Assembly (NCBI GenBank): GCA_028693235.1
Contig: JAQUVW010000003.1
Coordinates: 182,069 to 246,068, forward strand
Source of the DNA: Candidatus Gastranaerophilales bacterium
Lineage (GTDB): Bacteria; Cyanobacteriota; Vampirovibrionia; Gastranaerophilales; Gastranaerophilaceae
Length of the DNA: 64,000 nt
Reading direction: 5' to 3'
Positions 33,631 through 62,775 of this stretch are shown in pieces; the stretch's first letter is position 1, and each line of letters begins with the position of its first letter. The notes under the pieces were generated by a model. That model ran no database searches, was not told the DNA's origin, and worked only from the letters and a program-made list of their open reading frames with translations. Made by a program: the position numbers and the translations under genes.

Positions 33631-33718
33631 AACAATTGTCCTTATATATTTTTAATAATAACTTTAAATATATTAAGCCATAAAAACAGAATAAAGTATA
33701 GTTTTTTAATAAAAAACC

Positions 33719-33747
33719 TTGACTTTTGTGTTTGGACTTAATAATAT
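33719..33747 (+). promoter_or_regulatory. Sigma-70-type promoter for tRNA-Gln
   Basis: TTGACT (33719-33724), 17-nt spacer, TAATAT (33742-33747), ~15 nt before the tRNA 5' end. Confidence 0.6.
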
Positions 33748-33762
33748 AGATACATAAGCCAT

Positions 33763-33835
33763 TGGGGCGTCGCCAAGTGGTAAGGCACCTGGTTTTGGTC
33801 CAGGCATCTCGGAGGTTCGAATCCTTCCGCCCCAG
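33763..33835 (+). tRNA. tRNA-Gln (anticodon TTG); CCA not encoded
   Basis: Cloverleaf read by eye: acceptor tggggcg/cgcccca, anticodon arm cctgg-ttTTGgt-ccagg, T-loop ggttcgaat; very close to classical bacterial tRNA-Gln. Confidence 0.92.
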
Positions 33836-33846
33836 AATTTAAAAAA

Positions 33847-33871
33847 GACTTTCGATTGAAAGCCTTTTTTT
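33847..33871 (+). terminator. Short hairpin plus T-run after tRNA-Gln
   Basis: ctttc-gatt-gaaag then 7 T. Confidence 0.5.
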
Positions 33872-33954
33872 GTATATATAACCTTTCTAGGACATTTTGA
33901 TGAGAATTTGAGAGGCAAGAGTGCCACGTTTAGGCTAATTGAGCCTAGTTTTTA

Positions 33955-33987
33955 GTGTTGAGATTTAGCGTCAAAAAATGTCCGAAA
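33955..33987 (+). repeat. Left-end repeat copy 1 (gtgttgagatttagcgtcaaaaaatgtccgaaa)
   Basis: Shares GTGTTGAGAT..GTCAAAA with 34185-34209 and ~26/30 nt with 49284-49310, all in the same orientation. Confidence 0.7.
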
Positions 33988-34003
33988 CTTCCGTTTTCTT
34001 GCA

Positions 34004-34173
34004 CAGAATTGCACTAGAAATTTAAGATTTGTGATAATTCTTGGTTGCTCGCGTTAAACGTGTCTGCACGGCAAGGCTCAACGCCTTGACCGTTCCGCAC
34101 TCTGCTCGCAATCCGCTCCCCCACCCCGAGCGAGTCGTTTCTTGGACGAAATCATGTAAATAGTGCAATTCTG
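34004..34173. repeat. 13-bp perfect inverted repeat (cagaattgcacta 34004-34016 / tagtgcaattctg 34161-34173) enclosing GC-rich module A
   Basis: Arms read directly and are exact reverse complements; they bracket ~144 nt. Confidence 0.8.
34044..34146. repeat. GC-rich module A (non-coding, left end of island)
   Basis: Conspicuously G+C-rich block in AT-rich DNA; reverse strand contains GAGCGGATTGCGAGCAGAGTGCGGAACGG, related to modules B and C; internal hairpin caaggc-tcaac-gccttg. Confidence 0.6.
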
Positions 34174-34184
34174 CACTATCACTT

Positions 34185-34209
34185 GTGTTGAGATGTGTCA
34201 AAATATCTG
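34185..34209 (+). repeat. Left-end repeat copy 2 (gtgttgagatgtgtcaaaatatctg), followed by a third partial copy tgtgagatttgg
   Basis: Direct repeat of 33955-33987 on the other side of the IR-enclosed GC-rich module. Confidence 0.65.
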
Positions 34210-34286
34210 TGAGATTTGGATGAAAGACTTGATGTTTCTGCGAAACAGAGCAATTAATGTGTATGTAACCGAAAGGAGAAACACAC

Positions 34287-34484
34287 ATGGATATTGCTTA
34301 TGGAACCAAAATTCAAAACTTAAAAACTAATGAAATTGGTTTATTAATTAAAGTTTGGAAAAATAAATTTGCTGATGGCAAAATTGACTTCGCTACATGC
34401 GTGGATAAAAACGGAAAACGCTACAATATTGAATTAGATTTAATAACTCCAATTAAGGAGGTTGAAGATGATTCTAAAAAATAG
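34287..34484 (+). CDS. Small hypothetical protein (65 aa), first gene of the island
   Basis: ATG preceded by aaaggag RBS; no recognisable motif. Confidence 0.45.
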   Translation: MDIAYGTKIQNLKTNEIGLLIKVWKNKFADGKIDFATCVDKNGKRYNIELDLITPIKEVEDDSKK

Positions 34485-34701
34485 AAGAACCCGAGAAACA
34501 TTAGAAATTGAGTATGCTGAGTTTAGAAAAAAATTTGCTAAAGAGATTCAAATATCTTTTGAGAGCTACAAGCAAACACAGTTAAATAAATCATTTTACT
34601 GTTTCAAAGATGACAATTCAATGGAATTCAACTTTTACTTTCAAGTCCAATACAATTTCAACAGCTTTGGAAATTCAGCTTGGTATATAGAGAGGCTGTA
34701 A
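34468..34701 (+). CDS. Small hypothetical protein (77 aa)
   Basis: ATG 34468 preceded by aaggagg RBS (track start is TTG 34462); ends 1 nt before the transposase ATG. Confidence 0.45.
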   Translation: MILKNRRTRETLEIEYAEFRKKFAKEIQISFESYKQTQLNKSFYCFKDDNSMEFNFYFQVQYNFNSFGNSAWYIERL

Positions 34702-36540
34702 ATGGATATAAATTTTACACCAGAAAAGTCAAAACAAATTGCACTCGCAAGATTAGATTTAATTCACCAATGGCAAGAATTTAGAAGAAAATCTACAAAT
34801 AAATTATCTGCCGACTATGATTTTGTAAAATTACATAATTCTTCAAATTCATATTTATTTGAGATCTTAGGAAAAATATCGAGAGGAAGTTTGCATCGTT
34901 GGAATAATTTGTTAAATGGAAGTGAAGATTATACTTTACTTCTACCTCAGTATAAATATTCTTGTATTGTAGAATATCGAACAGTTTTAACCGACGAAGA
35001 AATCAGAATCTTTATGGGTTTGTTGCTACATCCGAACCGACTTTCAATCGGTAAAGCTACGGCATTGACAAAATACAAACTAAAACAACAAGGTCAAAAT
35101 TTTATCCCAGCCGATATAACATTCAGAAGATATGCAAAGTGGTTCAAAGACAACAATTATGACAAATGGATACTTGCCAGAGATGGTGAAAAAGCTCTGT
35201 CAGATAAAGTTGAACCATATATCAAACGTGATGCGAGTTTGCTTGAAGTCGGAGATATTTTAGTCGCCGACGGTCATAAATTAGCTTTTCAAGTGATAAA
35301 TCCATTCACAGGAAAACCCAAAATGGCGACATTAGTTGGATTTTTGGATTGGAAATCAACAGCTTTGGTTGGCTATGAAATTATGTTAGAGGAAAATACT
35401 CAATGTATAGCTTCCGCTCTCCGTAATTCAATAATAAATTTAGATATGATTCCCAAAGTTGTTTATCAAGATAACGGCAGAGCTTTTAGAGCAAAGTATT
35501 TTACAGACGATAAAGGGTTCTCGGAACTTGGTTTTAACGGATTGTACTCAAAACTCGGAATAGAAACAGTATTTGCAAGACCATATAATGCAAGGGCGAA
35601 AGTTATAGAACGATTTTTTAAAGAATTTCAAGAAGGTTTTGAAAAATTATTACCAAGTTATGTCGGCTCAGCAATTTCTGAAAAACCTGCGTACTTAAAA
35701 AGAAATGAAAGATTTCATGCAAATTTACATTCCGAATATGTACCGACAATTGAAGAAGCGGATTTTGGCAAGTGCGGAGTCGAACGAAGTGAACGAGCAC
35801 GTCCTGCGGCGGTGAACGGTGGAATGAAGCATTTTGCGAAGCAAAACTGCGGAATGAAATCCGAGTTCACCAAGCTGCCAACAATCCAAGACACAATAAA
35901 AATTATTGATATGTGGTTGAGTTTTAAAAATTCTCAACCTTGTCCAAATTCTCCTGACAAAATGATTGCAGAAGTTTTAGAAGATAGAAAGCGTCAAAAT
36001 ATAAACACTGATACATTGGACGATTTGATGTTAGCAACCGAAGTTAAGACAATTCAGAGAAATGGCATAAGATTTTTGAACTACGATTATTTTGATGAAC
36101 GACTTTATGGTTTCAAAAATAAAGTGCGGATAAAATACAACCTTTTTGATTTAACAAGTATCAAAGTTTTTACGATAAAAGGCGAATATCTTTGTAAGGC
36201 AGAGAGAGTAACCGAAACTCATCCGATGGCGAAGATTTTGGGTGACGTAAAAGATTTAGAAGATTACAAACAAAAAATTGAAAAACAACGGAAGTTAAGA
36301 AAGAAAACGATAAATTCAGTCAAGGAATTGTTATCTAATGATGAATGCAAATTTATTGAAACAAAAATTATAAAAAATGAAGAATTTTTAACACCCGTTA
36401 AAACGTCGTTTAAAAGCTCTTTAAATGGCGTTTATAAAAATAATTCTGAAAAATATGAATATCTTGTGAAAAATAATCCTCAAGATAAGTGGATTGAAGA
36501 ATTTAAACAAACAAAGGAGTACAAATTATTGTATGATTAG
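34702..36540 (+). CDS. DDE (rve-type) transposase of the MuA/TnsB/TniA class, carrying an in-frame GC-rich insertion
   Basis: Candidate catalytic D/D/E in VADGHKL, VYQDNGRAFRA, ARPYNARAKVIERFFKEF; Mu-transposase C-terminal barrel pattern GIRFLNYDYFDERLYGFKNKVRIKYNLFDLTSIKVF. Confidence 0.85.
   Translation: MDINFTPEKSKQIALARLDLIHQWQEFRRKSTNKLSADYDFVKLHNSSNSYLFEILGKISRGSLHRWNNLLNGSEDYTLLLPQYKYSCIVEYRTVLTDEEIRIFMGLLLHPNRLSIGKATALTKYKLKQQGQNFIPADITFRRYAKWFKDNNYDKWILARDGEKALSDKVEPYIKRDASLLEVGDILVADGHKLAFQVINPFTGKPKMATLVGFLDWKSTALVGYEIMLEENTQCIASALRNSIINLDMIPKVVYQDNGRAFRAKYFTDDKGFSELGFNGLYSKLGIETVFARPYNARAKVIERFFKEFQEGFEKLLPSYVGSAISEKPAYLKRNERFHANLHSEYVPTIEEADFGKCGVERSERARPAAVNGGMKHFAKQNCGMKSEFTKLPTIQDTIKIIDMWLSFKNSQPCPNSPDKMIAEVLEDRKRQNINTDTLDDLMLATEVKTIQRNGIRFLNYDYFDERLYGFKNKVRIKYNLFDLTSIKVFTIKGEYLCKAERVTETHPMAKILGDVKDLEDYKQKIEKQRKLRKKTINSVKELLSNDECKFIETKIIKNEEFLTPVKTSFKSSLNGVYKNNSEKYEYLVKNNPQDKWIEEFKQTKEYKLLYD
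35757..35880. repeat. GC-rich module B, in frame inside the transposase ORF
   Basis: gcggattttggcaagtgcggagtcgaacgaagtgaacgagc...ctgcggaatgaaatccgagttcacc; terminal inverted cggattt/aaatccg, internal hairpin ttttgc-gaa-gcaaaa; encodes an Ala/Arg/Gly-rich segment unlike the rest of the protein. Confidence 0.65.
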
Positions 36541-37213
36541 AAAATTTGTCAGAACGCAAAATGTTAAAAACTTTATAGGGCTTGTTGAAAATTTAATCAA
36601 TAAACCAAAGAACGTACCAAAAATGGCATTGGTTTATGGCGAACCCGGACTTGGTAAATCTCAAACTGCATTATGGCTAAGTTGCAAATATGATGCTATA
36701 TATTTGAGAGCAACAAATCTTATGACTGGTCGATGGTTACTTTAAGAACTGGTTAAAGAAATTGATGAAATACCGAGATTTTTGACTGCGGACAACTTCA
36801 ATTTACTTTGTAAAAAACTAAAACAGAAGCCAAAGCTGATTATCATTGATGAAATTGATTATTTGATGAATAATTCAAAAACAATAGAAACTTTGCGTGA
36901 TATTCATGATGAAACAGATTGCCCGATAATCTTTGTTGGGATGGGTTTAGCACATAGAAAACTTGAACGATACAAACATTTATATGATAGATTTTTAGAA
37001 ATTCTGCAATTCGAAACTTTTGAAGTAGCGGATTTAAAACAGATTTTTGATGAATTATCAGAAGTTACAGTAACTGCTGATGCAATTGAATATATCTATA
37101 AAAAATATAATCGTTTCAGGCAAATTATTCAGTTGATAAATCAGTTGGAAACTATTGCTAAAGAGAATAATTTTACTGAAATTACCGAAGAAACAGTGAG
37201 GCAGATAATATGA
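36533..37213 (+). pseudogene. TniB/TnsC/MuB-like AAA+ transposition ATPase interrupted by one in-frame TAA (36743-36745)
   Basis: Walker A GEPGLGKS before the stop and Walker B LIIIDEID after it, both in the same frame; the ATG overlaps the transposase stop. Confidence 0.75.
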
Positions 37214-37296
37214 AACGGATTTTCGGTAGGGCACCGTGTGAGCGAGAGCGAACCCAGCCCGTATGATGGAGCGGGACGTTACTCCCGCGACAACTC
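37214..37296. repeat. GC-rich module C (intergenic, after the ATPase)
   Basis: acggattttcggtagggcaccgtgtgagcgagagcgaaccc...ggagcgggacgttactcccgcg; aligns with module B from the CGGATTTT start; hairpin cggga-cgttac-tcccg. Confidence 0.6.
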
Positions 37297-37322
37297 GAAT
37301 AATTCAAGATGGAAAGGAAACT

Positions 37323-37880
37323 ATGGATATACTTAAATTAGCAAAACACCTAAAAGAATTTACGCTTGATGAAATTGAAATGATAGCTGAATGTGATTGT
37401 AAAACCGAACTTGAAAAGTTGTTAAGTGAACATAAAATAGCGTTTAAAAATAAAAAATACGAATACATTGAAAAACAAAATGAGGAATATTCAATATTTA
37501 TAAATAAAAAATCTAAAAATATAAATTATGAATTTACGGACGCCGTACACGATTTTTTAGAAAATTATGCAAAAAAATATTGTAAATCTGGTACTTGTAA
37601 AAACTACAGAACCATTTTTAATTATGGAATTTTACCATTTTTCAAAAATAAACATATTGGGGATATTCAAATTAATGATGTAAAAATTTTTTATAAAAAA
37701 TGTCAGGAATTAAATTTCAAATCAAGACGGATAAAAAACACTTTAGCTCTTTTAAATCAATTATTAAAATATTTTCAGGAGCAAGGATTTATAAAAAGTA
37801 GATGTATTTTTCAAGTAAAACGACTGACAGCCAAAAACGAATTTAATAAAAATAGGTTAATTTTTAAGGAGAATTTATGA
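37323..37880 (+). CDS. Stand-alone tyrosine-recombinase core-binding (phage integrase N-terminal SAM-like) domain protein; no catalytic domain
   Basis: FTDAVHDFLENYAKKYCKSGTCKNYRTIFNYGILPFFKNKHIGDIQINDVKIFYKK...IKNTLALLNQLLKYFQEQGFI fits the four-helix core-binding pattern; the ORF ends ~25 aa later; ATG 37323 with ggaaagga RBS. Confidence 0.55.
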   Translation: MDILKLAKHLKEFTLDEIEMIAECDCKTELEKLLSEHKIAFKNKKYEYIEKQNEEYSIFINKKSKNINYEFTDAVHDFLENYAKKYCKSGTCKNYRTIFNYGILPFFKNKHIGDIQINDVKIFYKKCQELNFKSRRIKNTLALLNQLLKYFQEQGFIKSRCIFQVKRLTAKNEFNKNRLIFKENL

Positions 37881-38296
37881 GTAAAAAACGACATTACAAC
37901 GAAGCAGAACGACTTTTTATATGTGATGGATTGTCAGCAGATGAAATAGCAAGAAAATTTGAGATTTCACGCAGAACAATTTTTTATTGGAAGAAGGAAT
38001 ATAATTGGGATAAGAAGCGAGCGGATTATTTGTTCAACAATACCAGAATGAGCTTTGAAATCAATGATTTTACAAGAAAGTTGATGGATAAAATTATGAC
38101 GGATATTGATAACAATAGACAAGTTAGCCAGTCAGAAATTTATACGGTTTTAAACTTAATAAAACGCATGCTAGAAATCAAAAATTACGAAGACGAAATC
38201 GTCAAAGCTAAAAAAGAAGAAAAACCGAAAGAACTGACGCCTGAATTGATTATGCAAATAAACAAAGATATTCTTGGTTGGGACGGAACTTATTAA
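37877..38296 (+). CDS. HTH DNA-binding protein (small-terminase-like / DUF1804-like N-terminus)
   Basis: AERLFICDGLSADEIARKFEISRRTIFYWKKEYNWDKKR is a helix-turn-helix followed by a W-rich motif; ATGA overlap with the upstream gene. Confidence 0.45.
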   Translation: MSKKRHYNEAERLFICDGLSADEIARKFEISRRTIFYWKKEYNWDKKRADYLFNNTRMSFEINDFTRKLMDKIMTDIDNNRQVSQSEIYTVLNLIKRMLEIKNYEDEIVKAKKEEKPKELTPELIMQINKDILGWDGTY

Positions 38297-38361
38297 TTAT
38301 ATTGAATCTACAAATTCTATTTAATATTTATGCTATTATTGATTATGGAATTAGTGTTCAA

Positions 38362-39354
38362 ATGAGGTTTTTAGTGAATAGTAACGGCCAAAACGAAATC
38401 ATAATTTATCAAGCTAAAAACGGCAAAACTCAAATTGATGTAAAACTTCAAGATGAGACAGTTTGGCTTACGCAAAAACAAATGGCTGAATTGTTTGATA
38501 AAAATGTAAGAACCGTAAACGAACACATTAATAATATTTTTAAAGAAGGTGAATTGAATAAAATTGCAGTTATCCGGAATTTCCGGATAACTGCAATTGA
38601 CGGCAAACAGTACGATACAAACTTCTATAATCTTGATGTGATTATTTCTGTCGGCTATAGAGTAAAGTCTTTGAGAGGTACGCAATTCCGTATTTGGGCG
38701 AACAGTATTTTGAAAGATTATTTAGTTAAAGGCTACGCTGTTAATGAAAAAGTTTTACAAACTCAAAGAGAAAAAATTACGGCTTTGCAAACTTCGATAA
38801 ATTTGCTTTCAAGAAGTTTGACTAATCAAATTGAAACAGTTGATGCGGCTCAACAGGTTGCAATTATTTTGGATAAATTTGCAAAAGGGCTTGATTTGCT
38901 TGATAATTTTGACCACAAAACACTTGATACTAAAGGCGAAACAAAACGTGAAGCAATTAGAATTTCAACAAAAGAATTTTTGTCTGTTGTAAATAAAATG
39001 AAATCAGAATTTGCGTCTGATGTTTTTGCAAACCCTAAAGACGATAGTTTTGATAGTTCTGTTAATCAGATTTACCAAACTTTTGACGGCACAGAACTTT
39101 ATCCGACTTTGGAAGAAAAAGCTTCTATGTTGTTGTATTTGATAACAAAAAATCATTCATTTTCTGACGGCAACAAACGTATCGCTGCAAGTTGTTTCTT
39201 GTATTTTTTGGATAAAAATGACATTCTGTATAAAAATAATTTGCCAACGATTGATAATGCAACCCTATTTGCATTGACGATTTTAATTGCCGAAAGTAAT
39301 CCTACAGAAATGGAAACAATGAAACAAATTGTTGTTAGTGTGTTGAATGGATAA
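38362..39354 (+). CDS. RhuM-family N-terminal domain fused to a Fic/Doc-type domain
   Basis: N-term IIIYQAKNGKTQIDVKLQDETVWLTQKQMAELFDKNVRTVNEHINNIF (RhuM pattern); C-term HSFSDGNKRIAA matches the Doc-type motif HxFx(D/N)(A/G)NKR. Confidence 0.7.
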   Translation: MRFLVNSNGQNEIIIYQAKNGKTQIDVKLQDETVWLTQKQMAELFDKNVRTVNEHINNIFKEGELNKIAVIRNFRITAIDGKQYDTNFYNLDVIISVGYRVKSLRGTQFRIWANSILKDYLVKGYAVNEKVLQTQREKITALQTSINLLSRSLTNQIETVDAAQQVAIILDKFAKGLDLLDNFDHKTLDTKGETKREAIRISTKEFLSVVNKMKSEFASDVFANPKDDSFDSSVNQIYQTFDGTELYPTLEEKASMLLYLITKNHSFSDGNKRIAASCFLYFLDKNDILYKNNLPTIDNATLFALTILIAESNPTEMETMKQIVVSVLNG

Positions 39355-39362
39355 AGATAAAC

Positions 39363-39611
39363 TTATTTATAAGTTTCTAATTTTTTACCTGTTTTTGAAT
39401 ACTTTGTAACAGTTCCATTCGAAGATTTTTTATAGACGAATTCAGTTTGTCCTTTTTTATTGTACTGAACAGTTTTTCCATTTGAATAAGTTTTTGTATA
39501 ACCGGTTGTTTGACCTTTTGAATTCTTGATATATTTTTTTGTTGTCGTACTTGCAAAAGCTGTTGATACAAATATTGTACAAATTAATGTTAATAGCAAA
39601 ATCTTTTTCAT
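39363..39611 (-). CDS. Small secreted Lys/Thr/Gly-repeat protein (82 aa)
   Basis: ATG 39611 with aaagga RBS; signal peptide MKKILLLTLICTIFVSTAFA; repeated K-x-G-x-T units. Confidence 0.45.
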   Translation of the reverse strand: MKKILLLTLICTIFVSTAFASTTTKKYIKNSKGQTTGYTKTYSNGKTVQYNKKGQTEFVYKKSSNGTVTKYSKTGKKLETYK

Positions 39612-39624
39612 AATGTTTATTCCT

Positions 39625-40137
39625 TTATTCAATGCAAATATTTTTTACATAATTATAAAATGTGTCAACAATTTCTTTTAAAATTAGCTCTGAAGATATT
39701 TCTTCGGATAATACAAATTCTTCGTTATAGCCTGATGTATTTAAAAATAATACGGATACCCCCATAGTATCATTCAATGTATTTATAGAATATTGAAATA
39801 AAATTTCATGAATTTCACATTTTTCATCAATATTATTAAGAGTAAGTAAAATTGTAATTGTGTTATTTCCAATATCATTTTCTTGTTGTTCTATGTTTAA
39901 TTTAATATTTTCAGGTAGTTCAATTTCTTCTTTCCATTTTTTCAATTTTAGAAAGGCATTTTTAATTGATGTTTTAAATAATTCAATATTAGTACTCTTT
40001 TTGGATAAGTTTTCAAATTCACTATGAGTCTTTTTATAATTAAAAAATATATCAGAAATTTTATTATGCCCATTTAATGATTTTAAATCTTTAAATGTAT
40101 TAATCATTTTTTCTTTTAGTTCATTCGTTTTTATCAT
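39625..40137 (-). CDS. Hypothetical cytoplasmic protein (170 aa)
   Basis: Clean ORF immediately upstream of the small secreted protein gene; no recognisable motif. Confidence 0.45.
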   Translation of the reverse strand: MIKTNELKEKMINTFKDLKSLNGHNKISDIFFNYKKTHSEFENLSKKSTNIELFKTSIKNAFLKLKKWKEEIELPENIKLNIEQQENDIGNNTITILLTLNNIDEKCEIHEILFQYSINTLNDTMGVSVLFLNTSGYNEEFVLSEEISSELILKEIVDTFYNYVKNICIE

Positions 40138-40213
40138 TTTTATTTTCCTTTTTCTTTTATTTACAAGTAATTATTATATGAAAGATTTTTCTAGTTAGGT
40201 ATTAGATAGGTGG

Positions 40214-40984
40214 TTAGTTAATTTCTAAACCTAAAATTTCAGTTATATATTTATTGATATAATATTTTGGGGTATTAGGTTTAATACTACGAAGATAATC
40301 TTTTACAATTATCATTTTATAATCATTTATCGACAATTTATAATCAATATTCAACTGTTCAAAAAAAGGCTCATAATCTTCTTCTGTAATCAGTTTTTTC
40401 TTTATAGCACTAAGTAAATCGTTCACGATTAATTTCTTTGTACATTTATACATCTTTTCAGAAATTTGAATCAAATTTTTTGAAATTAAACATATAAAAT
40501 CCTCAAACGAGTCTGCATTAATTACTTGATAATTTAAGTGTGCAGATAAATTTCTTTTATCAAATATTGCTTGATTATTTTTACATAGTGTAGAAGTTTT
40601 ATCAAAGCCAAGTATATGAAAAAAGCAATTTATAGCTGATTTTTCTTTGTTTTTAAATGTATAAATATCAATTTTCTCATCTCTTTTGATTTCGATTTTT
40701 TGACCATCACTAGAATTCAAACAGGATTCCGTTAATTGTAAATAATTTAATAGTTCTAAATGTTTTGAATCACAATTATACAATCTAACAAGAAAATAAT
40801 GTAAAACATAATTGTAAAAATGTGCTAAATTAATTACTGCATCATTATAAAAATCGGCTTCTTTTACAACTAATAGATTAGTAAACATTCTGAGAAAAAA
40901 GTCGTTTGACATTATTATTGGTAAATAATCTTTTAACTCATACAGTTCTTCTTCCAAATCAATTATTGTTTTCACAGGTATCAC
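40214..40984 (-). CDS. HEPN-like (Rx4H; Abi_2/DUF4145-like) protein coupled to the R-M operon
   Basis: Motif KRNLSAH (R-x4-H) mid-protein in a helical context; the start overlaps the end of the hsdM-S gene by 26 nt. Confidence 0.45.
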   Translation of the reverse strand: MIPVKTIIDLEEELYELKDYLPIIMSNDFFLRMFTNLLVVKEADFYNDAVINLAHFYNYVLHYFLVRLYNCDSKHLELLNYLQLTESCLNSSDGQKIEIKRDEKIDIYTFKNKEKSAINCFFHILGFDKTSTLCKNNQAIFDKRNLSAHLNYQVINADSFEDFICLISKNLIQISEKMYKCTKKLIVNDLLSAIKKKLITEEDYEPFFEQLNIDYKLSINDYKMIIVKDYLRSIKPNTPKYYINKYITEILGLEIN

Positions 40985-43418
40985 CCCAGATGGATTGGAT
41001 TTTGGTGTTGATTTTGGCTTGATGAAGTTTGATTAATTTTTTACATTCTTCAACAGCTGTTTCTTCTTCTTCGATTTTGGCTACGATTTCTTGTTGTTCT
41101 TCGAGAGCAATTAACGGAATTTCCAAATCGGAAATATAGCCTTTATTTAAATTTTGCTGTCTTGCCCCAGCTCTATGTAGCATATAATCTTCACGTTTTG
41201 ATGAAAAATAAAGATACAAAAAATACATATTGATTTTCGTATTAGGTTTTACTCCTGAAATTGCCTGATTAAAAGCCCCATCCCTGTCTAATATTGACAT
41301 TTTGAATGCCGCTGTATCATACATTCCAATTAATAAAGAACCTTTAGGGAAAAGCTTTGCATTTGAGTCTTTTAATCCCAAATTAGTTATCTTATCAACA
41401 GAATCCGTAGTGTAAGAATTGTTTAACTCTCCAGATGAATACCAAGGAATACTTCCATTATACCAGTATTCATTATTGCTTCTCGAAGGTGTACCACCTG
41501 ATTGGATATCACATATATCGCCAAGTTTAACTTTTCTCCAATTTGGATTAATTGGAAGAGTTGGTTTCCAATTATCGACTACTTTTTGAGCTCCGTCGAT
41601 TACGGCTTGATATCCGTCCAATTCCTTAACTATTTCTTCTTGAACCTCTAATGGTGGAAGTGGAATTTGAATGAGTGCGACTTCCTTGTTCATTAATTTC
41701 GGATTTCCTAATTTTACAACATAATTTTTTGCAACAACATTTAACACTCTTGCTACATAAGTCATATTTAAATTTTTAGGATTTATCGCTTTTAATGTTC
41801 CACATACATTTGTACAATTGAATTTCCCACTACGACTAAATACAGTTCCTGCATTAGCTCCATCCGTTGTCCATGTCGCATAATCACCTTCAAAATCAAA
41901 AGTGTTAATATATCCGAGCACTCCATTATCTGCTGTTTGAGAGGAATATACAGGATAAGTTCCTTTATTGTTTTCAATATCTTTTTTGCTAATTACTCTT
42001 CCTCTTCCCAATAAGCATATTTTATCTATTCTTACCATATCCCATTTACAATTTGAGTAGTCTTTTGTTTCTTTATAGCGGGAGGCAGTTAGATTATATT
42101 CACCATTTTCTGACAGCTTTGATTTTTCTACGATTGTTGCTAAAGGGTTCTTGTTTATTGATTGGATTGCTTCGCTATCGCTCGCAATGGCACTATTTTG
42201 CCATTGTTGGATTAATTCTGTTGCTTTAGGTAAGTCGTTTTTGTCGATTTCTCTGCGTTGAGCACCTAAATCATATCCGTCATTTTTAATTTCTACAAAT
42301 AAAATTTTATCCGTCTTTTTAGCAAGTTGTCTATCTAGTAGCAAAATTGATGTTTTAACACCTGAATACGGTTGAAAAATACCACTTGGCAAACTTACAA
42401 CGGCATACAAATAATTTTCATCAACAAGTTTTTTTCTTAAATTTTTGTAGGCATTTGCTGATTGAAAAACTATTCCTTCTGGCACAATTATTCCTGCTCG
42501 ACCTGTAGAATTAAGATGTTCCATAATATAATCGACAAACAAAACTTCCGAACGGTTTGCTTTTATTCCAAATTTATTGTGTGGCTTAATCCCTCCTTTT
42601 GGAGTCATAAATGGAGGGTTTGCGAAAATCACATCAAAATAATTATCCCATTTTGTTTGGTTTGTCAAAGTATCGTATTCATAAATTTTAGGTTGTTTGA
42701 ATTTATGCAAATACATATTTACAAGTGCAAGTTTTACCATATCAGGAGAAATATCATAACCTTGAATATTTTCTGTCAAAGTTTTTAGTTCTGTTGGATT
42801 CAAAGGTATATTTGTATTTTCTGAAGTTTTTAAAATATGCTTATACGCTGAAATCAAGAATCCTGATGTACCACAAGCCGGATCTAAAATTGTATCATCT
42901 TTTGTTGGATTAACCACATCTACTATAAAATCAATGATATGTCTTGGAGTTCTAAACTGCCCCGCATCACCTTGAGAGCCCATTATCGAAAGTAAATATT
43001 CAAATCCGTTACCCAAATTTTCGCTATTATTATAATCCAAATCATTGATTTCTTTTAAAAACAAAGTAAGAGTTTGACCGTCACGAAAAGGCAAGTATGC
43101 ACCTTTGAAAATGTTTCTGAAAAGTTCGGGGATTTGTTTTGCAAGTGGCAATTTTTCAAGTGCTTCTGTGTATAAATTCATTCGTGCTTCATTGCCTAGC
43201 TGTTTTGACATAAGTTTTGACCAAGCATATTCATTCAAGTCGTCAGTAAAAAATTCACGTTCGCCACCAAATTCAACCGTTTCTAAGTCCATATCGTCCA
43301 TGAACTTATAAATCATTGCAATCGTAATTTGCTCAATCTGAGCTTGTGGATTAGGGATTTTTCCAACCAAAACATCTCTTGCGTTATCTATCGTTCTTTT
43401 TATATCTTTTGTTAACAT
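40959..43418 (-). CDS. Type I R-M methyltransferase fused to a complete two-TRD specificity subunit (HsdM-HsdS fusion)
   Basis: N-half: DPACGTSGFL (SAM motif I), FANPPF (motif IV); C-half: two target-recognition-like halves, each followed by a conserved helix (LPPLEVQEEIVKELD..., IPLIALEEQQEIVAKIEEEE...) in one uninterrupted 819-aa ORF. Confidence 0.8.
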   Translation of the reverse strand: MLTKDIKRTIDNARDVLVGKIPNPQAQIEQITIAMIYKFMDDMDLETVEFGGEREFFTDDLNEYAWSKLMSKQLGNEARMNLYTEALEKLPLAKQIPELFRNIFKGAYLPFRDGQTLTLFLKEINDLDYNNSENLGNGFEYLLSIMGSQGDAGQFRTPRHIIDFIVDVVNPTKDDTILDPACGTSGFLISAYKHILKTSENTNIPLNPTELKTLTENIQGYDISPDMVKLALVNMYLHKFKQPKIYEYDTLTNQTKWDNYFDVIFANPPFMTPKGGIKPHNKFGIKANRSEVLFVDYIMEHLNSTGRAGIIVPEGIVFQSANAYKNLRKKLVDENYLYAVVSLPSGIFQPYSGVKTSILLLDRQLAKKTDKILFVEIKNDGYDLGAQRREIDKNDLPKATELIQQWQNSAIASDSEAIQSINKNPLATIVEKSKLSENGEYNLTASRYKETKDYSNCKWDMVRIDKICLLGRGRVISKKDIENNKGTYPVYSSQTADNGVLGYINTFDFEGDYATWTTDGANAGTVFSRSGKFNCTNVCGTLKAINPKNLNMTYVARVLNVVAKNYVVKLGNPKLMNKEVALIQIPLPPLEVQEEIVKELDGYQAVIDGAQKVVDNWKPTLPINPNWRKVKLGDICDIQSGGTPSRSNNEYWYNGSIPWYSSGELNNSYTTDSVDKITNLGLKDSNAKLFPKGSLLIGMYDTAAFKMSILDRDGAFNQAISGVKPNTKINMYFLYLYFSSKREDYMLHRAGARQQNLNKGYISDLEIPLIALEEQQEIVAKIEEEETAVEECKKLIKLHQAKINTKIQSIWGDTCENNN

Positions 43419-43451
43419 ATTCAGTTATTCCTTTCGCCTCTAGTGATGAGG

Positions 43452-45932
43452 TTACATATATTTATTTAGAACGATATTATCTTTAATGTATTCAGGCAAA
43501 GTCGCTCTAAAACCGTTCAAATGTTTATAATCTTCCATCGTGAAGCCTGCGTAAAAATTCAACTCTTGAAACTTTTTGCATTCAATAATATTTCTAAATT
43601 GTCCGTCAGTTGCGTACGCTTTTATAAAATTTTTGATATAGGGAACATATTCAGACTCAGGTTTGTAAATAGAAATGTACTTGTCACATTCATCTTCAAG
43701 CAATTCATCTTGGTTCTTAAATTTATTAATAAGTCCAAAAGCACGTTGCAAAACTTCTATCCAAGAAAGTCGTCTGTCAAGATTCTCTGATTTTCTCAAC
43801 TTATCCAAAGTAACAAATAAATTTGGTTTGTTTTCGTATTTTTCTTTTACAATATGTTCTGCTTGTTGCCAATCTTCATTATTTACAGCCGTTTTAATAT
43901 CCTCATCTTGTGTAAATGTTTCTTTTGCTTGTTGGAATAATTCTCTATCAATTTTCATTCCATCAAGTCCGATAGATATTTCCTTTAATTCTTTTAATTT
44001 ATCTGGGTCAAATATTTCAAGAGTTTCTAATGGAGGTTTTCCACCACCTGTTCCACCTTCGCCACTTCTTTCTCTTGGAAGTTTTAATTCTTCATCATAA
44101 TTGAATTCGTGTTCAAAATATTCACAATTTGCGAAGAAATCAAAGAGTTTAAAATATTCTTTTTCTTTGTATTCAGTCGGTTTTGTTGTAGGGTATTTAA
44201 AAGTGTTTTTTCTTGTACCACGACCTTTTATCTGAACAAAATCGGTAGGTGAGAAAATTGGACGCATTAATGCTAAGTTTAAAATATTTTGGCAATCATA
44301 GCCTGTTGTCATCATTCCGACAGTTACACAAATTCTTGTTTTTGAGGATTTATAATCATCTAAAAATCTTGAGTTTCCGTTTAAATTATCATTAGAAAAA
44401 TATGTTGTCATATCTTGAGCTGTAGGCACACAAGATGTAACTTGAACTGCAAAATCAGAGTTATACTTACCTTCCCAGATTTTGTGCGCCATTTGATTTA
44501 ATATTTGTGTAATTTTTGCACAATGGTCTTGGCTTACGCAAAATACAATCGTTTTACCAAATTCACCGGAAATAGGGTCTTTTAATCCATTTTCTAATAA
44601 TGTTTTACAGAATTGAATATTTGTATTTTCTGAGAAAAATTTCTTTTCAAAATCTCTTGCAAATACTTGTTGTTCTTCCTCGTCCCCGTCATCAGTAATC
44701 TGTACAACCGAATAACCTTTTTCTGAAAGAATTTCTGTTGTAATTTCAGTTCTGGCGTCAACAACTTTTGGATTGATTAAAAATTTATCTCTAACACCAT
44801 CAAGCAAGCTATATCTAAAAGTTGGTTCACCACTTTCGCAGCCAAAAGTTTTATATGTATCAAGTAAAATTCTTCTTTCCAACGCCTTAGGGTCTTCAAA
44901 TTTTAGTTTTTTAGTATCAACATTTCTTATATAATCTTTTGGTGTTGCAGTTAATCCTAATTTATAGCCGATGAAATATTCAAATACTGCCCTTGAATTT
45001 CCTCCAATGCAACGATGGCTTTCATCAGAAATTACAAGGTCAAAATCGGTTGGAGAAAATATTCTTTTGTACCTATCATCAACTAAAAGGCTTTGAATAG
45101 TAGTAATTACGACTTCTGCTTTTCGCCAATCGTTTCTGACTTCTTTATAAATTACACAAGTATAATCTTTTAAATAATCATCAAAATTCTTTTTAACCTG
45201 TTTTTCAAGTTCGATTCTATCAACCAAAAATAAGACTCTTTTGGCGTTCCCTGTTTTTAAAAATAATTTAATAATACCTGCAGAAGTTAATGTTTTACCG
45301 GTACCTGTTGCCATTTCAAATAGAAATCTGTTATTATCCTCTTTTGCTGATTGCTGTAATGCTTTTATTGCATTGATTTGGTAATCTCTTAAAAGTCTAT
45401 AACCATTATCAAAACAGAATTTCTTGCGTTTTGATTCATCAATATAATCAGGTTCTTTTAGCAAATTCGGATTTTGCATAAGTGCAACATATTCTTTTGT
45501 AATATTTTCAAAATACAAAGTCTTAGTATTGGGCTTGAAACCTGTTCTTTGCTCTAAGGATTCTTGCGTAGGCATTGATGTTATAATTTCAGGATTACCG
45601 ATTTCGATATCCCAAAGATAATGAATATTTCCGTTTGAAAGAATTACAAACCTAATATTTTGACTCATTGCATAAGCTCGTGCTTGGTCTTTTGCAAAAA
45701 GCGGATTTATATCTTCACGTTTTGCTTCTAAAACACAAAGTGGGAAACCTTTAGAATCAAACAATAAATAATCTAAAAGTCCGGTTTTAAACTTATCATC
45801 TCTTTTTATTTTGGTTGAATATTCTAAATCGACATTAGCTCTGCCTTTTTCATCATCAATCAAACGCCACTCAGCATCTTCAAGTAATTTATTAATTTTT
45901 ATTCTTGCTTTAGCCTCAGATTCTGTTTTCAT
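43452..45932 (-). CDS. hsdR: Type I restriction enzyme R subunit
   Basis: N-terminal PD-(D/E)xK (DYLLFDS...VLEAKRE), helicase motif I MATGTGKT, motif II DESH, EcoEI-R-like C-terminal domain; ATG 45932 with aggtg RBS preferred over the track GTG. Confidence 0.88.
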   Translation of the reverse strand: MKTESEAKARIKINKLLEDAEWRLIDDEKGRANVDLEYSTKIKRDDKFKTGLLDYLLFDSKGFPLCVLEAKREDINPLFAKDQARAYAMSQNIRFVILSNGNIHYLWDIEIGNPEIITSMPTQESLEQRTGFKPNTKTLYFENITKEYVALMQNPNLLKEPDYIDESKRKKFCFDNGYRLLRDYQINAIKALQQSAKEDNNRFLFEMATGTGKTLTSAGIIKLFLKTGNAKRVLFLVDRIELEKQVKKNFDDYLKDYTCVIYKEVRNDWRKAEVVITTIQSLLVDDRYKRIFSPTDFDLVISDESHRCIGGNSRAVFEYFIGYKLGLTATPKDYIRNVDTKKLKFEDPKALERRILLDTYKTFGCESGEPTFRYSLLDGVRDKFLINPKVVDARTEITTEILSEKGYSVVQITDDGDEEEQQVFARDFEKKFFSENTNIQFCKTLLENGLKDPISGEFGKTIVFCVSQDHCAKITQILNQMAHKIWEGKYNSDFAVQVTSCVPTAQDMTTYFSNDNLNGNSRFLDDYKSSKTRICVTVGMMTTGYDCQNILNLALMRPIFSPTDFVQIKGRGTRKNTFKYPTTKPTEYKEKEYFKLFDFFANCEYFEHEFNYDEELKLPRERSGEGGTGGGKPPLETLEIFDPDKLKELKEISIGLDGMKIDRELFQQAKETFTQDEDIKTAVNNEDWQQAEHIVKEKYENKPNLFVTLDKLRKSENLDRRLSWIEVLQRAFGLINKFKNQDELLEDECDKYISIYKPESEYVPYIKNFIKAYATDGQFRNIIECKKFQELNFYAGFTMEDYKHLNGFRATLPEYIKDNIVLNKYM

Positions 45933-46017
45933 AAACACCTATTTAGGATTAAGTATAGTTATATGAATATCACAAAAACTAATATTTTAATACCTAATTT
46001 AAAATATGTAAATATTT

Positions 46018-59934: not shown

Positions 59935-62775
59935 TTAAACTTGATAACTTATAGCATCATAGCAATCTTGACATATTGTAGGATGTCCCTCGACCGTACC
60001 AAGTTCTCTATATTTCCAGCAACGTTCGCATTTTTCGCCAAGTGCTTTTGTAACATAGATTTTATATCCGTCTTCTTCAAGCTCATTCATTGTTCCATCA
60101 GGTTTTTTATCCGCCAAAATTGCTTGAGAGGTAATAAATATGTTGCATAATTCATTTTCATATTTTTGAATTAAATCTTTTTTGTCTGTTTCAATCCAAA
60201 CTGCAACCTCTAAAGAACTTCCGATTTTTTTATCCGCTCTTAAAGGTTCAATAGCTTTAGTTGCGATTTCACGAAGTTTTAAGATTTCATTAAACTCAGC
60301 ATCTAAATCATTATTTTCCCATTCAGGCTTGAATTCTGGCCAATTTGTAAGAAGCACACTTTCTAAACCGCCTTTTTGAGAATCTGGAACGCTTGTCCAG
60401 ATATCTTCTGCTTGATGAGGCATTACCGGCACTAATATTTTAGTAATAGCTTGTGACATTTCATACAATACTGTTTGACAAGCTCTTCTTGAAAGGGATT
60501 TTTTACCTTGAGTGTATAATCTGTCTTTTACAATATCAAGATAGAATGAGCTCAAGTCAATAGCTGCAAAGTTTTGCAAATGTTGGAAATATTTATAAAA
60601 TTCATAACTTTCAAAAGCTTCGGTAACATTTTTAATCAAAACATTTAGCTTATGAAGTGCAAATTTATCAATATTTTTAAGTTCATCATAATTCACATAA
60701 TCAACTGACGGGTCAAAATCGAACAAATTACCCAATAAAAATCTTGCAGTATTTCTGGTTTTTTTGAAGATTTCAACAAGCTGTTTGATAATATTGTCAC
60801 CAATTTTGATGTCATTTCGATAGTCGACAGAAGCTGCCCACAACCTCAAAATATCAGCACCATAGTTTTTGATTATATCATCAGGTCTGATGTAATTTCC
60901 AAGAGATTTGGACATTTTGCGTCCGTCTTCGCCGAAAACGAACCCGTGAGTCAAAACTTGTTTATACGGAGCTTTTTCTTGAGTTGCGATTGATGTCAAT
61001 AATGATGACTGGAACCAACCTCTGTGTTGGTCAGAGCCTTCAAGGTACATATCAACCGGAGTATGTCCAAGCTCAGCGTTTCTCTTTTCAACAACTGCTT
61101 TCCAAGAAACACCGGAATCGAACCAAACATCCATAATATCTTTTTCTTTAGTAAAATGAACGCCACCACACTTAGGACACTTAAAGCCTTGTGGCATAAG
61201 TTCTTTTTCAGAATATTTAACCCAAGCGTCAGAGCTTTCTTTGTCAAACATATCTGCTACATGATTAATGGTTTCATCAGTAACAATAACCTCACCACAA
61301 TCATCACAATAGAACACAGGAATAGGAACGCCCCAAGCTCTTTGCCTTGATATGCACCAGTCTGTACGACCTTCTACCATGTTAGAAATTCTACTTTCTC
61401 CTGAAGCCGGTATCCATTTAACGTCTTTTATAGCTTTCAAAGTTTGATTTCTAAATTTGTCCATTTTCACAAACCATTGATCTGTGGCTCTGTAAATGAC
61501 AGGGTTTTTACATCTCCAACAGTGCGGATAGCTGTGAGTAATATCTTGTTTAAAAACCAAAGCACTTGTAGACTCAAGCTTATCCATTATAATATTGTGA
61601 CCTTTATAATAAGGTACACCAAGCAAATCATTGTCATTAAAGTCTTTAGACTCAACCCAGATACCTTTAGAGTTTAACGGTGAGAATGTTTCAATTCCAT
61701 ATCGTTGGCAAGCTTCCCAGTCTTCAAGACCGTGTCCAGGAGCTGTATGAACGCAGCCGGTACCTGCTTCTAAAGTAACGTGGTCGCCTAATATAATCGG
61801 ACTTTTTATATTTGAATATAACGGGTGGGTAGTTTTTAGATGTTCAAAATCAGCACCTTTACCGCCGCCAATTGACTTAACTTCATTTTTGTCCCATTCA
61901 ACGGCTGAAACAAACGTATCTAGCAAATCGGTTGCGACTAAGTAATTTGCCCCCTTATACTCAAAGATTGTATATTCTAATCTTGAATTTAGACAAATCG
62001 CTCTATTTGATGGGATTGTCCAAGGAGTTGTTGTCCAAATAATCGCATATAAATCATTGTTTGAATTTACATTTGCAACTTGGTAGGCTTTAGCTTTCTC
62101 TTCTTCATCAAATTTGAATCTTACATAAATTGAAGTTGATGTAATGTCAGCATATTCGACTTCTGCTTCTGCAAGTGCCGTTTCACAAGAAGCACACCAA
62201 TATACAGGTTTTTTACCTTTTTCGATGTAGCCTTTTTTGAACATTTCGCCAAAAACTCTTATTTGTTCAGCTTCATATTCAGCTGCAATAGTCAAATAAG
62301 GATGTTCCCAATCACCCCAAACGCCTAATCGTTTGAATTCTGATTCTTGTCCTTTTAGATTTTTAAGAGCAAACTCTCTGCATTTAGTTCTAAGTTCAGC
62401 CGGAGTTAAAGCTTCACGTCCACCTTTAATTTTTTTAACAACTGCATTTTCAATAGGAAGTCCATGTCCGTCATAACCGGGTACATAAGGAGCATAATAA
62501 CCTCTTTGGGATTTATATTTAATCAAAATATCTTTTAAAATTTTATTGAGAGCAGTACCAACGTGGATTTTTTCAGAGCTCAAATACGGAGGACCGTCAT
62601 GCAAAATAAAACTTTTTGTTTTATCTCTTTGAGCAAGGTTTTTTTCGTAAATATTATTTTCTTCCCAAAATTTTTGAGTTTGAAGTTCTTTTTGAGTAGC
62701 ATTTGCACGCATTTGTAGTGAAGTTTGCGGCAAATTTATTGTATCTTTGTATTCCACTTTTGTACTTTCAGCCAT
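59935..62775 (-). CDS. ileS: Isoleucine--tRNA ligase
   Basis: 946 aa; KMSKS present, class I HIGH-region variant (KIHVGTALNK), editing domain, C-terminal Cys zinc cluster (CERCWKY...CQDC). Confidence 0.96.
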   Translation of the reverse strand: MAESTKVEYKDTINLPQTSLQMRANATQKELQTQKFWEENNIYEKNLAQRDKTKSFILHDGPPYLSSEKIHVGTALNKILKDILIKYKSQRGYYAPYVPGYDGHGLPIENAVVKKIKGGREALTPAELRTKCREFALKNLKGQESEFKRLGVWGDWEHPYLTIAAEYEAEQIRVFGEMFKKGYIEKGKKPVYWCASCETALAEAEVEYADITSTSIYVRFKFDEEEKAKAYQVANVNSNNDLYAIIWTTTPWTIPSNRAICLNSRLEYTIFEYKGANYLVATDLLDTFVSAVEWDKNEVKSIGGGKGADFEHLKTTHPLYSNIKSPIILGDHVTLEAGTGCVHTAPGHGLEDWEACQRYGIETFSPLNSKGIWVESKDFNDNDLLGVPYYKGHNIIMDKLESTSALVFKQDITHSYPHCWRCKNPVIYRATDQWFVKMDKFRNQTLKAIKDVKWIPASGESRISNMVEGRTDWCISRQRAWGVPIPVFYCDDCGEVIVTDETINHVADMFDKESSDAWVKYSEKELMPQGFKCPKCGGVHFTKEKDIMDVWFDSGVSWKAVVEKRNAELGHTPVDMYLEGSDQHRGWFQSSLLTSIATQEKAPYKQVLTHGFVFGEDGRKMSKSLGNYIRPDDIIKNYGADILRLWAASVDYRNDIKIGDNIIKQLVEIFKKTRNTARFLLGNLFDFDPSVDYVNYDELKNIDKFALHKLNVLIKNVTEAFESYEFYKYFQHLQNFAAIDLSSFYLDIVKDRLYTQGKKSLSRRACQTVLYEMSQAITKILVPVMPHQAEDIWTSVPDSQKGGLESVLLTNWPEFKPEWENNDLDAEFNEILKLREIATKAIEPLRADKKIGSSLEVAVWIETDKKDLIQKYENELCNIFITSQAILADKKPDGTMNELEEDGYKIYVTKALGEKCERCWKYRELGTVEGHPTICQDCYDAISYQV

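Follow-up and report, generated by a model that had tools for sequence, protein, structure and literature searches.

What three short, conspicuously GC-rich blocks are, and how they came to lie together in otherwise AT-rich DNA, is the question raised by a 64-kb stretch of the genome of a Candidatus Gastranaerophilales bacterium (contig JAQUVW010000003.1; this whole stretch is referred to below as the window, and positions are counted from its first letter). The GC content of the window is 32.8%, and a scan with an 80-nt sliding window and a cut-off of at least 55% GC singles out only two tRNA genes, the stretches at about 34035-34170, 35739-35855 and 37194-37318 and, marginally, position 61707, which bears out the three blocks (A, B and C) singled out in a preliminary description of this DNA. 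All three lie within a 3.3-kb transposition module situated directly 3' of a tRNA-Gln gene. The answer that we consider very likely is that the blocks are copies belonging to two related, non-autonomous and structured families of mobile repeats of Gastranaerophilales and Melainabacteria, of the same kind as the Rickettsia palindromic elements (RPEs), the repetitive extragenic palindromic (REP) sequences and the BOX elements.

The three blocks are full-length members of two related, structured and dispersed repeat families. Module A (34039-34117, minus strand), located in the non-coding left-end region of the transposon, is a full-length family I repeat; its reverse strand carries the family I 5' end AGCGGATTG and 3' end CAACCAAG and reads AGCGGATTGCGAGCAGAG-TGC…GCA-CGTTTAACGCGAGCAACCAAGA, and the covariance model R1, built from 113 family I copies that all come from other genomes, matches it with 66.1 bits (E = 4.2e-16) over model positions 1-74 of 74. 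Module B (35758-35892, plus strand; GCGGATTTTGGCAAG…GCTGCCAACAATCCAAGAC), within the open reading frame (ORF) of the transposase, is a full-length repeat of family IIb, and module C (37215-37310, plus strand; ACGGATTTTCGGTAGGGC…GCCCGTATGATG-GAGCGGGACGTTACTCCCGC-GACAACTCGAATAATTCAAGAT), which begins 2 nt past the stop codon of the ATPase gene and extends to the ribosome-binding site (RBS) of the next gene, is a full-length repeat of family IIa. Profile hidden Markov models (HMMs), made from four other loci for IIb and from nine for IIa with the window sequences excluded, recover B at 35758-35891 (model positions 1-131, E = 1.4e-12) and C at 37216-37309 (model positions 2-90, E = 1.8e-11). B and C share the family II ends, (A/G)CGGATTTT at the 5' side and AAT(C/T)CAAGA at the 3' side; the copies nearest to B are found in the related loci L157 (107 of 135 positions) and L190 (101 of 135), while C is, by eye, close to the copies occupying the same junction in L175 and L206. 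The limits given here replace those first proposed (34044-34146, 35757-35880 and 37214-37296); in particular, the GC-rich tail at 34118-34146 belongs to the transposon backbone, its string CCCCACGCCGAGCTAGTCGTTTTAGGACG being present also in L004, which is free of a module at that place. The predicted folds of A (its minimum-energy fold), B and C each close with a terminal stem, and the hairpins ttttgc/gcaaaa in B and cggga/tcccg in C, already recognised in the preliminary description, are real apical stems.

The relatedness of the three blocks, which had also been asserted, holds for their architecture and their ends (GCGGATT…CCAAG), the blocks belonging, however, to two families and not to one. 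Direct pairwise alignment is weak, the B-C score being reached by 25 of 500 shuffles and that of the reverse complement of A with B by 7 of 500, and the family I model gives two weak partial matches on B and none on C; the relationship is therefore visible only at the level of the families, and direct alignment taken alone would wrongly suggest that the blocks are unrelated. With the filters of the covariance model switched off and both HMMs run with --max, no copy other than A, B and C was found in the 64 kb, in agreement with what had been seen by eye. Rfam 15, searched on both strands of 33700-37500 with E values up to 5, returned the tRNA and two noise-level small nucleolar RNA matches only, and at the gathering threshold five related loci yielded tRNA and transfer-messenger RNA (tmRNA) alone.

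Module B comprises 135 nt, i.e. 45 codons, in frame and devoid of stop codons, between the PTIEE and TIK codons of the transposase gene. In an alignment with 22 homologues, 76-83% identical to the window protein by BLASTP, residues 353-397 (ADFGKCG…KLPTIQD, 45 aa) are unique to the latter and sit between the conserved segments PTIEE and TIKMIDMW; judged from this alignment, B is an in-frame insertion, as had been supposed, and none of the aligned homologues carries it. The similar codon strings PTIEEA and PTIQDT that bracket the block, previously read as a duplication, are not one, since CTGCCAACAATCCAAGAC is the 3' terminus of the element itself (family consensus GCCAATAATCCAAGAC). Other homologues possess extra transposase segments at other places, GC-rich in their DNA too: those of L003 and L004 start with AGCGRATTGCGAGCAGAG and end with CGTTTA..GCGAGCAACCAAG, which is the reverse complement of block A, and the insert of L001 is a family I element in the opposite orientation, the two arms of its terminal stem being changed in a complementary way (TTGGCGGC/GCCGCCAA). 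The linker RNE(K/R)FH…PTIEE, followed by TIKMIDMW, is indeed a recurrent insertion site, at least four independent insertions having occurred within 27 codons: after EE in the window, after HND and in reverse orientation in L001, and after CATAA in L003/L186 and, separately, in L206. An AlphaFold2 model of the transposase (mean predicted local distance difference test score, pLDDT, 39) was unusable for placing the insertion on the fold, and a profile search of the PDB sequences gave no meaningful match.

Families I and II share their ends (5' (A)GCGGATT, 3' CCAAG(N)), the motif (C/T)AG(A)GGGC…GCCCGT and a fold supported by covariation, in which a terminal stem closes a GC-rich element of about 55-135 nt in all; this stem is followed in family I by a second stem with a variable apical hairpin, and in family II by a three-way junction with one hairpin more. 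The layout of family I, as deduced from 113 distinct copies, is (A)GCGGATTG-NNNN-CAGAG-(stem 2)-variable hairpin-(stem 2')-CGTTTAAYG-N'N'N'N'-CAACCAAG(N). In these copies 89.2% of the cells are paired, against 77.6% after column shuffling, and the covariation score is 0.251, against 0.076 when shuffled and at most 0.128 in slid controls; neither observed value is reached by any of 500 shuffles, and changes on both sides are seen at 7 of the 14 pairs. The stems of family I are strongly supported by these compensatory changes. The commonest family I variant, CGAG opposite CGAG, would place a tandem G·A/A·G mismatch on this strand, the other strand having pyrimidine mismatches instead; of the 113 copies, 94 fold better as the forward strand than as its reverse complement (mean -27.7 versus -24.8 kcal/mol, Wilcoxon p = 2e-14). 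Family IIa, 77-97 nt long, reads GCGGATTTT[CGG]-TAGGGC…GCCCGTAAGG-hairpin-CC[CCG]AATAATCCAAGAC; its two tested stems are 99% paired, with three pairs changed on both sides and a covariation that none of 500 shuffles reaches. The longer form IIb (121-135 nt) has a terminal stem GAC/GTC or GGC/GCC, variants that add to the compensatory changes, and in the copies at transposon junctions the bulged A of the terminal stem (GGATTG/CAACC) is turned into a C-G pair (GGCTTG/CAAGCC).

These data dispose of the trivial explanation, namely that the blocks are assembly chimeras, foreign high-GC fragments or simply GC-rich protein sequence. The origin of the window from a metagenome-assembled genome (MAG) and the weak direct similarity of A, B and C would be compatible with it, but hundreds of independent assemblies contain these families, their ends conserved and their stems changed in a compensatory way, B is missing from all 22 aligned homologues, and the matches to models built without the window have E values from 1e-11 to 4e-16. 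Dispersal, stem covariation and model matches together refute an artefact or chance origin, whose probability we regard as negligible.

How widely the elements are spread was assessed by scanning a family I pattern, drawn from four copies, over one genome per GTDB species. At least 120 stretches match; nearly all of the named records are Gastranaerophilales or Melainabacteria, with MAGs from gut or rumen besides, and about two chance matches are expected by the search's own estimate, two matches having indeed that appearance. Nine viral contigs of IMG/VR carry the pattern as well. The position counts that follow rest on 126 family I copies in 120 loci, taken from the matches listed. Beyond the searched pattern the bases GCG on the left and AG on the right are invariant, and conservation then falls; tandem copies are joined exactly and head-to-tail (75-nt units in L057); the three nucleotides to the left of the copies are AAA in 32% of cases versus 5% in the background; and no target-site duplication is found, repeats in the flanks of 108 copies being as frequent as in a flank-swapped control. 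Copies lying within open frames of at least 150 codons number 23 of 126, and 20 of these 23 fall in the multiple-of-three length class, compared with 52 of the other 103. The element is translated chiefly in two frames (ADCEQRAE…PFNASNQ or RIASRGR…RLMRATK), and the other genes that hold copies in frame encode Dam and Dcm methylases, Mu F, a virion-morphogenesis protein and a TetR regulator. That a miniature palindromic mobile repeat resembling the RPEs has colonised the transposon, one of the two possibilities first envisaged, is therefore well founded: the dispersed copies, at least 120 of them, the varying positions within transposons and the in-frame residence in unrelated genes all speak for it. 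To the best of a literature search on repeats and transposons in Melainabacteria and Gastranaerophilales, which returned no description of these repeat families, the best reading is that families I and II are previously undescribed and form a new family of RPE/REP/BOX-type repeats.

The supposed confinement of the blocks to the transposition module holds within the window and fails on the scale of genomes: a Mu-like transposon, a Mu-like prophage or their methylase genes occur in 31 of the 120 loci, the others showing ordinary host genes, and 89 of the 120 (about 74%) have no recognised Mu-like gene within 8 kb. An enrichment in the transposon is nevertheless real. It was measured on 80 metagenomic loci picked solely by the similarity of their transposase to an insertion-free homologue and searched for copies of I, IIa and IIb alike: 25 loci carry modules, 29 in total at five kinds of position, of which the transposon core (285 kb) holds 26 and the flanking DNA (294 kb) 3 (9.1 versus 1.0 per 100 kb, binomial p = 6e-6). 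The events not being independent, this nine-fold figure expresses an enrichment of occupancy and not a rate of insertion. Twelve family I copies occupy the junction between transposase and ATPase genes, eight IIa copies the junction between the ATPase and the next gene (the exact site of C), three IIb copies the region just upstream of the transposase start, and two modules the transposase linker. On a rough tree of transposase and ATPase, carriers and non-carriers are interleaved at protein distances of 3-10%, which implies repeated gain, loss or exchange of modules; family I and IIb copies fill the same two junctions in transposon lineages that are only distantly related (46-50% identical). 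The families are thus not confined to the transposon, nor do they form a constant component of it. As regards the window, C appears to have been inherited with its transposon sublineage, whereas A and B would be additions in the lineage of the window's own copy, since none of the other transposon copies examined has a counterpart of either at its position.

The concentration in the transposon might be taken to mean that the modules are moved by the machinery of Mu-like transposons or prophages, or by another factor encoded there, with a preference for nearby DNA. The nine-fold higher density in the transposon core than in adjacent DNA and the Mu-like genes at 31 of the 120 loci would fit such a scheme, as would the observation that in each of two complete chromosomes (L019 and L024) the one sampled match to the strict pattern lies in or next to a Mu-like element; moreover, Mu-type transposition creates 5-bp duplications, and a 5-nt repeat, ATGAA, flanks the junction insertions. 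Yet the ends of the modules are GCGG…CCAAG and not TG…CA, unlike the end region of the transposon, no target duplication is seen genome-wide, exact head-to-tail tandems and strand-asymmetric hairpins are not hallmarks of DDE transposases, and most copies are far from any Mu-like gene; an origin of the modules' mobility in the Mu-like machinery is, on this evidence, highly improbable.

The junctions deserve closer consideration. In module-free transposon copies the stop codon of the ATPase gene and the start codon of the next gene overlap as ATGA; filled junctions read ATGAA(Y), module, AAAGGA, 5-8 nt, ATGAA…, and in a second class of junction the downstream gene's start is duplicated imperfectly, over 15 nt. 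Flanked junctions of these kinds were seen in L149, L174, L175, L186, L187, L203, L205 and L206, in the window itself (37208-37327) and at the transposase/ATPase junctions of 12 loci. It is possible that the ATGAA flanks reflect an ancestral spacer later deleted between short repeats; it is equally conceivable that the unit which moves or recombines at junctions includes the RBS and the start codon. In a different view of the elements, they would be mobile intercistronic cassettes of structured RNA with an RBS at their 3' edge. Gene starts would acquire and lose such a cassette whole, a behaviour suggested by the ATGAA that stands on either side of the junction copies. We consider this rather unlikely; if true, it would mean that the cassettes alter how translation is coupled within operons, among them the TnsB/TnsC-like operon of a transposon that targets tRNA genes, and that the selection for sense-strand structure reflects RNA function and not only the needs of DNA mobility.

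A related proposal, that of a structured RNA belonging to the transposon, was the second possibility envisaged at the outset. According to it, the modules would be functional, cis-acting intercistronic RNA parts of the transposon, equipped with an RBS, which stabilise the mRNA, or else tune or uncouple translation of the ATPase gene and its downstream neighbour, the copies found elsewhere being a secondary spread. The 12 family I copies and the 8 IIa copies at the two junctions of the 80 loci are all in sense orientation and all followed by AAAGGA, 5-8 nt and ATG; the same two junctions are filled in the distant lineages mentioned above; altogether 27 of the 29 transposon-borne modules are in the sense orientation; and folding is strand-specific. 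These facts lend the proposal some weight, and to a limited extent it stands, C-type junction copies being inherited within sublineages. On the other hand, 55 of the 80 transposon copies are module-free, with a patchy presence on the tree, A lies antisense in the end region, the modules of B, L001, L003 and L206 are within the transposase ORF in either orientation, about three quarters of the sampled genome copies have no recognised Mu-like gene nearby, and the constraint on length implies that copies inside genes are translated. We hold it to be unlikely that a cis-acting role in the transposon is what defines these elements.

Several observations nonetheless weigh against the preferred explanation by mobile repeats and have to be set beside it. 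The enrichment counts are not independent, and homologous junction copies could be old parts of the transposon that were repeatedly lost, not repeatedly gained; an ATGAA on both sides of the module together with an RBS at both junctions is not explained by simple insertion without target duplication. A bias to the sense orientation is found genome-wide (inside ORFs, 25 copies run with the gene and 12 against it; between co-directional genes, 13 are sense versus 4; overall, 38 to 16), and it fits a function at the RNA level as well; so does the position of gene starts, an ORF beginning no more than 60 nt past the 3' end in 17 of 114 copies versus 3 on the other side (12 of these 17 at 10-24 nt, mostly with an RBS in between), and the apical loops of family I, frequently GNRA-like, are compatible with the same idea. 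Finally, no mobilising enzyme was found among the recurrent ORF clusters within 8 kb of the copies in the 120 loci, where only the genes of the Mu-like transposon recur, and the Y1/HUH family is absent from the Pfam families of 150 neighbouring ORFs, as judged from the 25 commonest of 105 families, so that a single Y1/HUH gene could be hidden among the others.

The scheme that we favour, i.e. that of non-autonomous mobile repeats, would work as follows. The elements would move in trans, by means of an enzyme encoded outside them which would recognise the folded single strand and paste it without target duplication, preferably 3' of an A-rich (RAA) sequence. Among known mechanisms, peel-and-paste transposition by HUH/Y1 enzymes, as in IS200/IS605 and in the systems formed by REPs and their associated tyrosine transposases (REP-RAYT), fits best, because of the exact ends, the lack of duplication, the head-to-tail tandems, the preferred left flank and the strand asymmetry; by analogy with these systems its involvement is possible, though we put it forward only tentatively, such an enzyme not having been found near the copies. 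The ends of the modules are complementary (GGATT…AATCC, GGATTG…CAACC); no insertion sequence (IS) with such ends was seen, and the end region of the Mu-like transposon is unrelated to them. Selection would then retain harmless copies alone, that is, intergenic ones abutting an RBS, or those which are stop-free, a multiple of three in length and lodged in tolerant protein linkers. The transposon would gather modules and carry them onward by a combination of tolerance and hitch-hiking; their concentration in it is attributed to the fact that the DNA of Mu/Tn7-like transposons is dispensable, multicopy and horizontally mobile.

Comparison with known systems places the two families close to several of them and within none. 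With the RPEs, whose properties are taken from PMC10969869, they have in common that they are short palindromic repeats of several related families in an AT-rich host genome, for which no transposase is known, and that they insert in frame into unrelated protein genes (here those for the transposase, Dam, Dcm, Mu F, the virion-morphogenesis protein and TetR) with the frame kept; the copy number per genome likewise appears low to moderate, as far as can be said short of a whole-genome count. They differ from RPEs in their host, the Melainabacteria being another phylum, in size (about 55-80 nt for family I against about 150 bp) and in their marked GC-richness, in the conserved unpaired junction motifs CAGAG and CGTTTAAY, in having only about 20% of copies inside ORFs, and in being strongly concentrated in transposons and prophages of Mu-like type. 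That they belong to the described RPE families is very unlikely, their phylum being another one, and the RPEs serve here as an analogue, not as a family assignment.

REP/RAYT systems are characterised by structure-defined ends, a flank preference, hairpins and clustering, the REPs themselves being extragenic and bearing a 5' motif of GTAG type. The present elements resemble REPs, REP doublets forming hairpins (REPINs) and IS200/IS605 in their structure-defined ends without target duplication, short preferred adjoining sequence, strand-specific hairpins, tandem or clustered copies, intergenic positions inside operons and compensatory evolution of stems. They are unlike REP/RAYT in that the 5' end is GCGG, with no GTAG motif, 23 of 126 copies are inside long ORFs, the apparent copy number is far lower, and no RAYT/Y1 gene was seen near the copies (120 loci; 25 commonest of 105 Pfam families).

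A modular build, boxA-boxB-boxC, is known from the BOX elements of Streptococcus pneumoniae, and the enterobacterial repetitive intergenic consensus (ERIC) and Correia-type repeats are examples of MITEs (miniature transposable elements with inverted repeats). Conserved terminal modules with variable internal hairpins (short and long family I, IIa, IIb), stable folds and co-transcription with neighbours recall the BOX, ERIC and Correia elements; the differences consist in the lack of a TA or other target duplication, of sequence similarity and of long terminal inverted repeats of IS type, and in the frequent in-frame insertion into ORFs. Some of the properties of the known elements are likewise drawn from PMC10969869. 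The 108 copies whose flanks were compared show no duplication of the kind expected of MITEs.

A structured element within a transposon that targets tRNA genes also calls to mind guide and regulatory RNAs, such as the CRISPR RNA and trans-activating CRISPR RNA of CRISPR-associated transposons, the omega RNA of IS200/605 and the bridge RNA of IS110, and relatives of the host transposon in Cyanobacteria do include RNA-guided forms (PMC11837452). The modules are not a guide RNA of the transposon: their position varies, a module is missing from most transposon copies, most modules are outside transposons, no variable guide-like segment was seen, and Rfam gave no match. In behaviour the two families come closest to the RPEs, in mobility signature to REP/REPIN and IS200/IS605-type elements, and in modular build to BOX.

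By what means small palindromic repeats that lack a transposase (RPEs, BOX, many REP-like elements) move, and why some of these come to reside in frame within proteins, is a long-standing problem, for which the present families offer an unusually tractable data set, with sharply defined ends, a fold supported by covariation and, in the abundant gut metagenomes of humans and animals, hundreds of insertion-polymorphic sites; a multicopy transposon, moreover, supplies many matched empty and filled sites at which movement can be studied. They extend the RPE-like colonisation of proteins to a sister lineage of the Cyanobacteria and explain both length heterogeneity and odd Ala/Arg/Gly-rich segments in annotated proteins of Melainabacteria. 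Modules may also add to the contig breaks of Melainabacteria metagenome assemblies; several contigs terminate within a module copy.

The transposon that hosts the modules belongs to a family very abundant in the gut (33762-38296 in the window; related loci L128-L207), whose genes encode a DDE transposase of Mu-like type, an AAA/TniB-like ATPase of 226 aa, a protein of 169-184 aa made up solely of the SAM-like N-terminal domain of phage integrases, and a helix-turn-helix (HTH) protein. In the window it lies immediately downstream of the tRNA-Gln gene (33762-33836, plus strand; ARAGORN and Rfam) and in the same orientation. The gene that holds B encodes a transposase of 612 aa (34702-36540, plus strand; Pfam Mu-transpos_C, E = 2.8e-14), which finds its top database match, identical in sequence, in a Candidatus Gastranaerophilales MAG; it is followed by the ATPase gene (36533-37213, plus strand; Pfam AAA_22, TniB; stop codon at 37211-37213) and, directly 3' of C, by the gene for a protein with a phage-integrase SAM-like N-terminal domain (37311-37880 including the RBS, plus strand; Pfam Phage_int_SAM_3). 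A DUF1804/Terminase_5-like HTH protein and, beside the transposition genes, two small ORFs complete the gene content of the 3.3-kb stretch. The mechanical ORF 37263-37880 opens at an ATG within module C; comparison with relatives points to the ATG at 37323, which the RBS GGAAAGGA (37311-37318, plus strand) precedes, as the true start codon of the SAM-like gene.

At 36743-36745 the ATPase gene is interrupted by an in-frame TAA, in place of a codon that specifies Glu in 66 of 68 homologues (GAA in 64); this is either a nonsense mutation rendering the copy defective or an error of the MAG consensus or assembly. Given this nonsense codon, the window's transposon copy is probably decaying.

A co-oriented tRNA gene, of many different identities, or a tmRNA gene lies 0.4-1.6 kb upstream in 43 of 52 related copies. 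In Cyanobacteria, Tn7-like elements that target tRNA genes by means of TnsD have been described (PMC11837452). No Pfam match to TniQ/TnsD was seen in the host transposon, which may be a variant of such tRNA-targeting elements with a different target selector.

At the left end, an inverted repeat (TGCACAGAATTGCACTA/TAGTGCAATTCTGCACTA, at 33996-34016 and 34160-34180) brackets the site of A and is conserved in L004, as are the repeated motifs GTTGAGAT/TGTGAGAT; these are probably binding sites of the transposase or of a repressor. A derivation of the modules from the transposon's own ends was considered and dropped, the left end having TGAGAT and TGCAC-type repeats with no similarity to the module ends.

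Further downstream, 3' of the transposition module, 38278-45938 holds a gene for a RhuM/Fic protein and, on the opposite strand, two ORFs of 819 and 828 aa, the former of which, from its sequence as read by eye, we take to resemble a type I restriction-modification HsdM/HsdS fusion. The 80 related transposons resemble the window in DNA sequence from about 34150 to 38100, the similarity dipping sharply at B and C; since it ends at about 38100, the RhuM/Fic gene and the two large ORFs may be cargo or flanking DNA.

Besides families I and II, the related loci harbour GC-rich insertions of other kinds. A third kind, of about 140 nt (AATGCGTCAGCCGGTGTGAAGTCC…GACGAAACACTACGATGCCGC…CCCGCAGATTTGACAG), occurs in L001 (1105-1265) and in L007 (3777-3829 and 4362-4520), in promoter-like regions upstream of the HTH gene and of small ORFs, and L003 lacks it at the corresponding places; at the gathering threshold no Rfam family matches it. 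The GACGAAAC blocks of L001 and L007 had by eye been thought to be a hammerhead or other ribozyme, an idea dropped as Rfam lends it no support. A fourth GC-rich insert, in frame in a homologous transposase, is found in L006 (6608-6687; CCCTCACCCCACCCCTCTCCCCAAAGGGGCGAGGGAGC, translated SPSPHPSPQRGEGA) and is common to P0114 and P0119.

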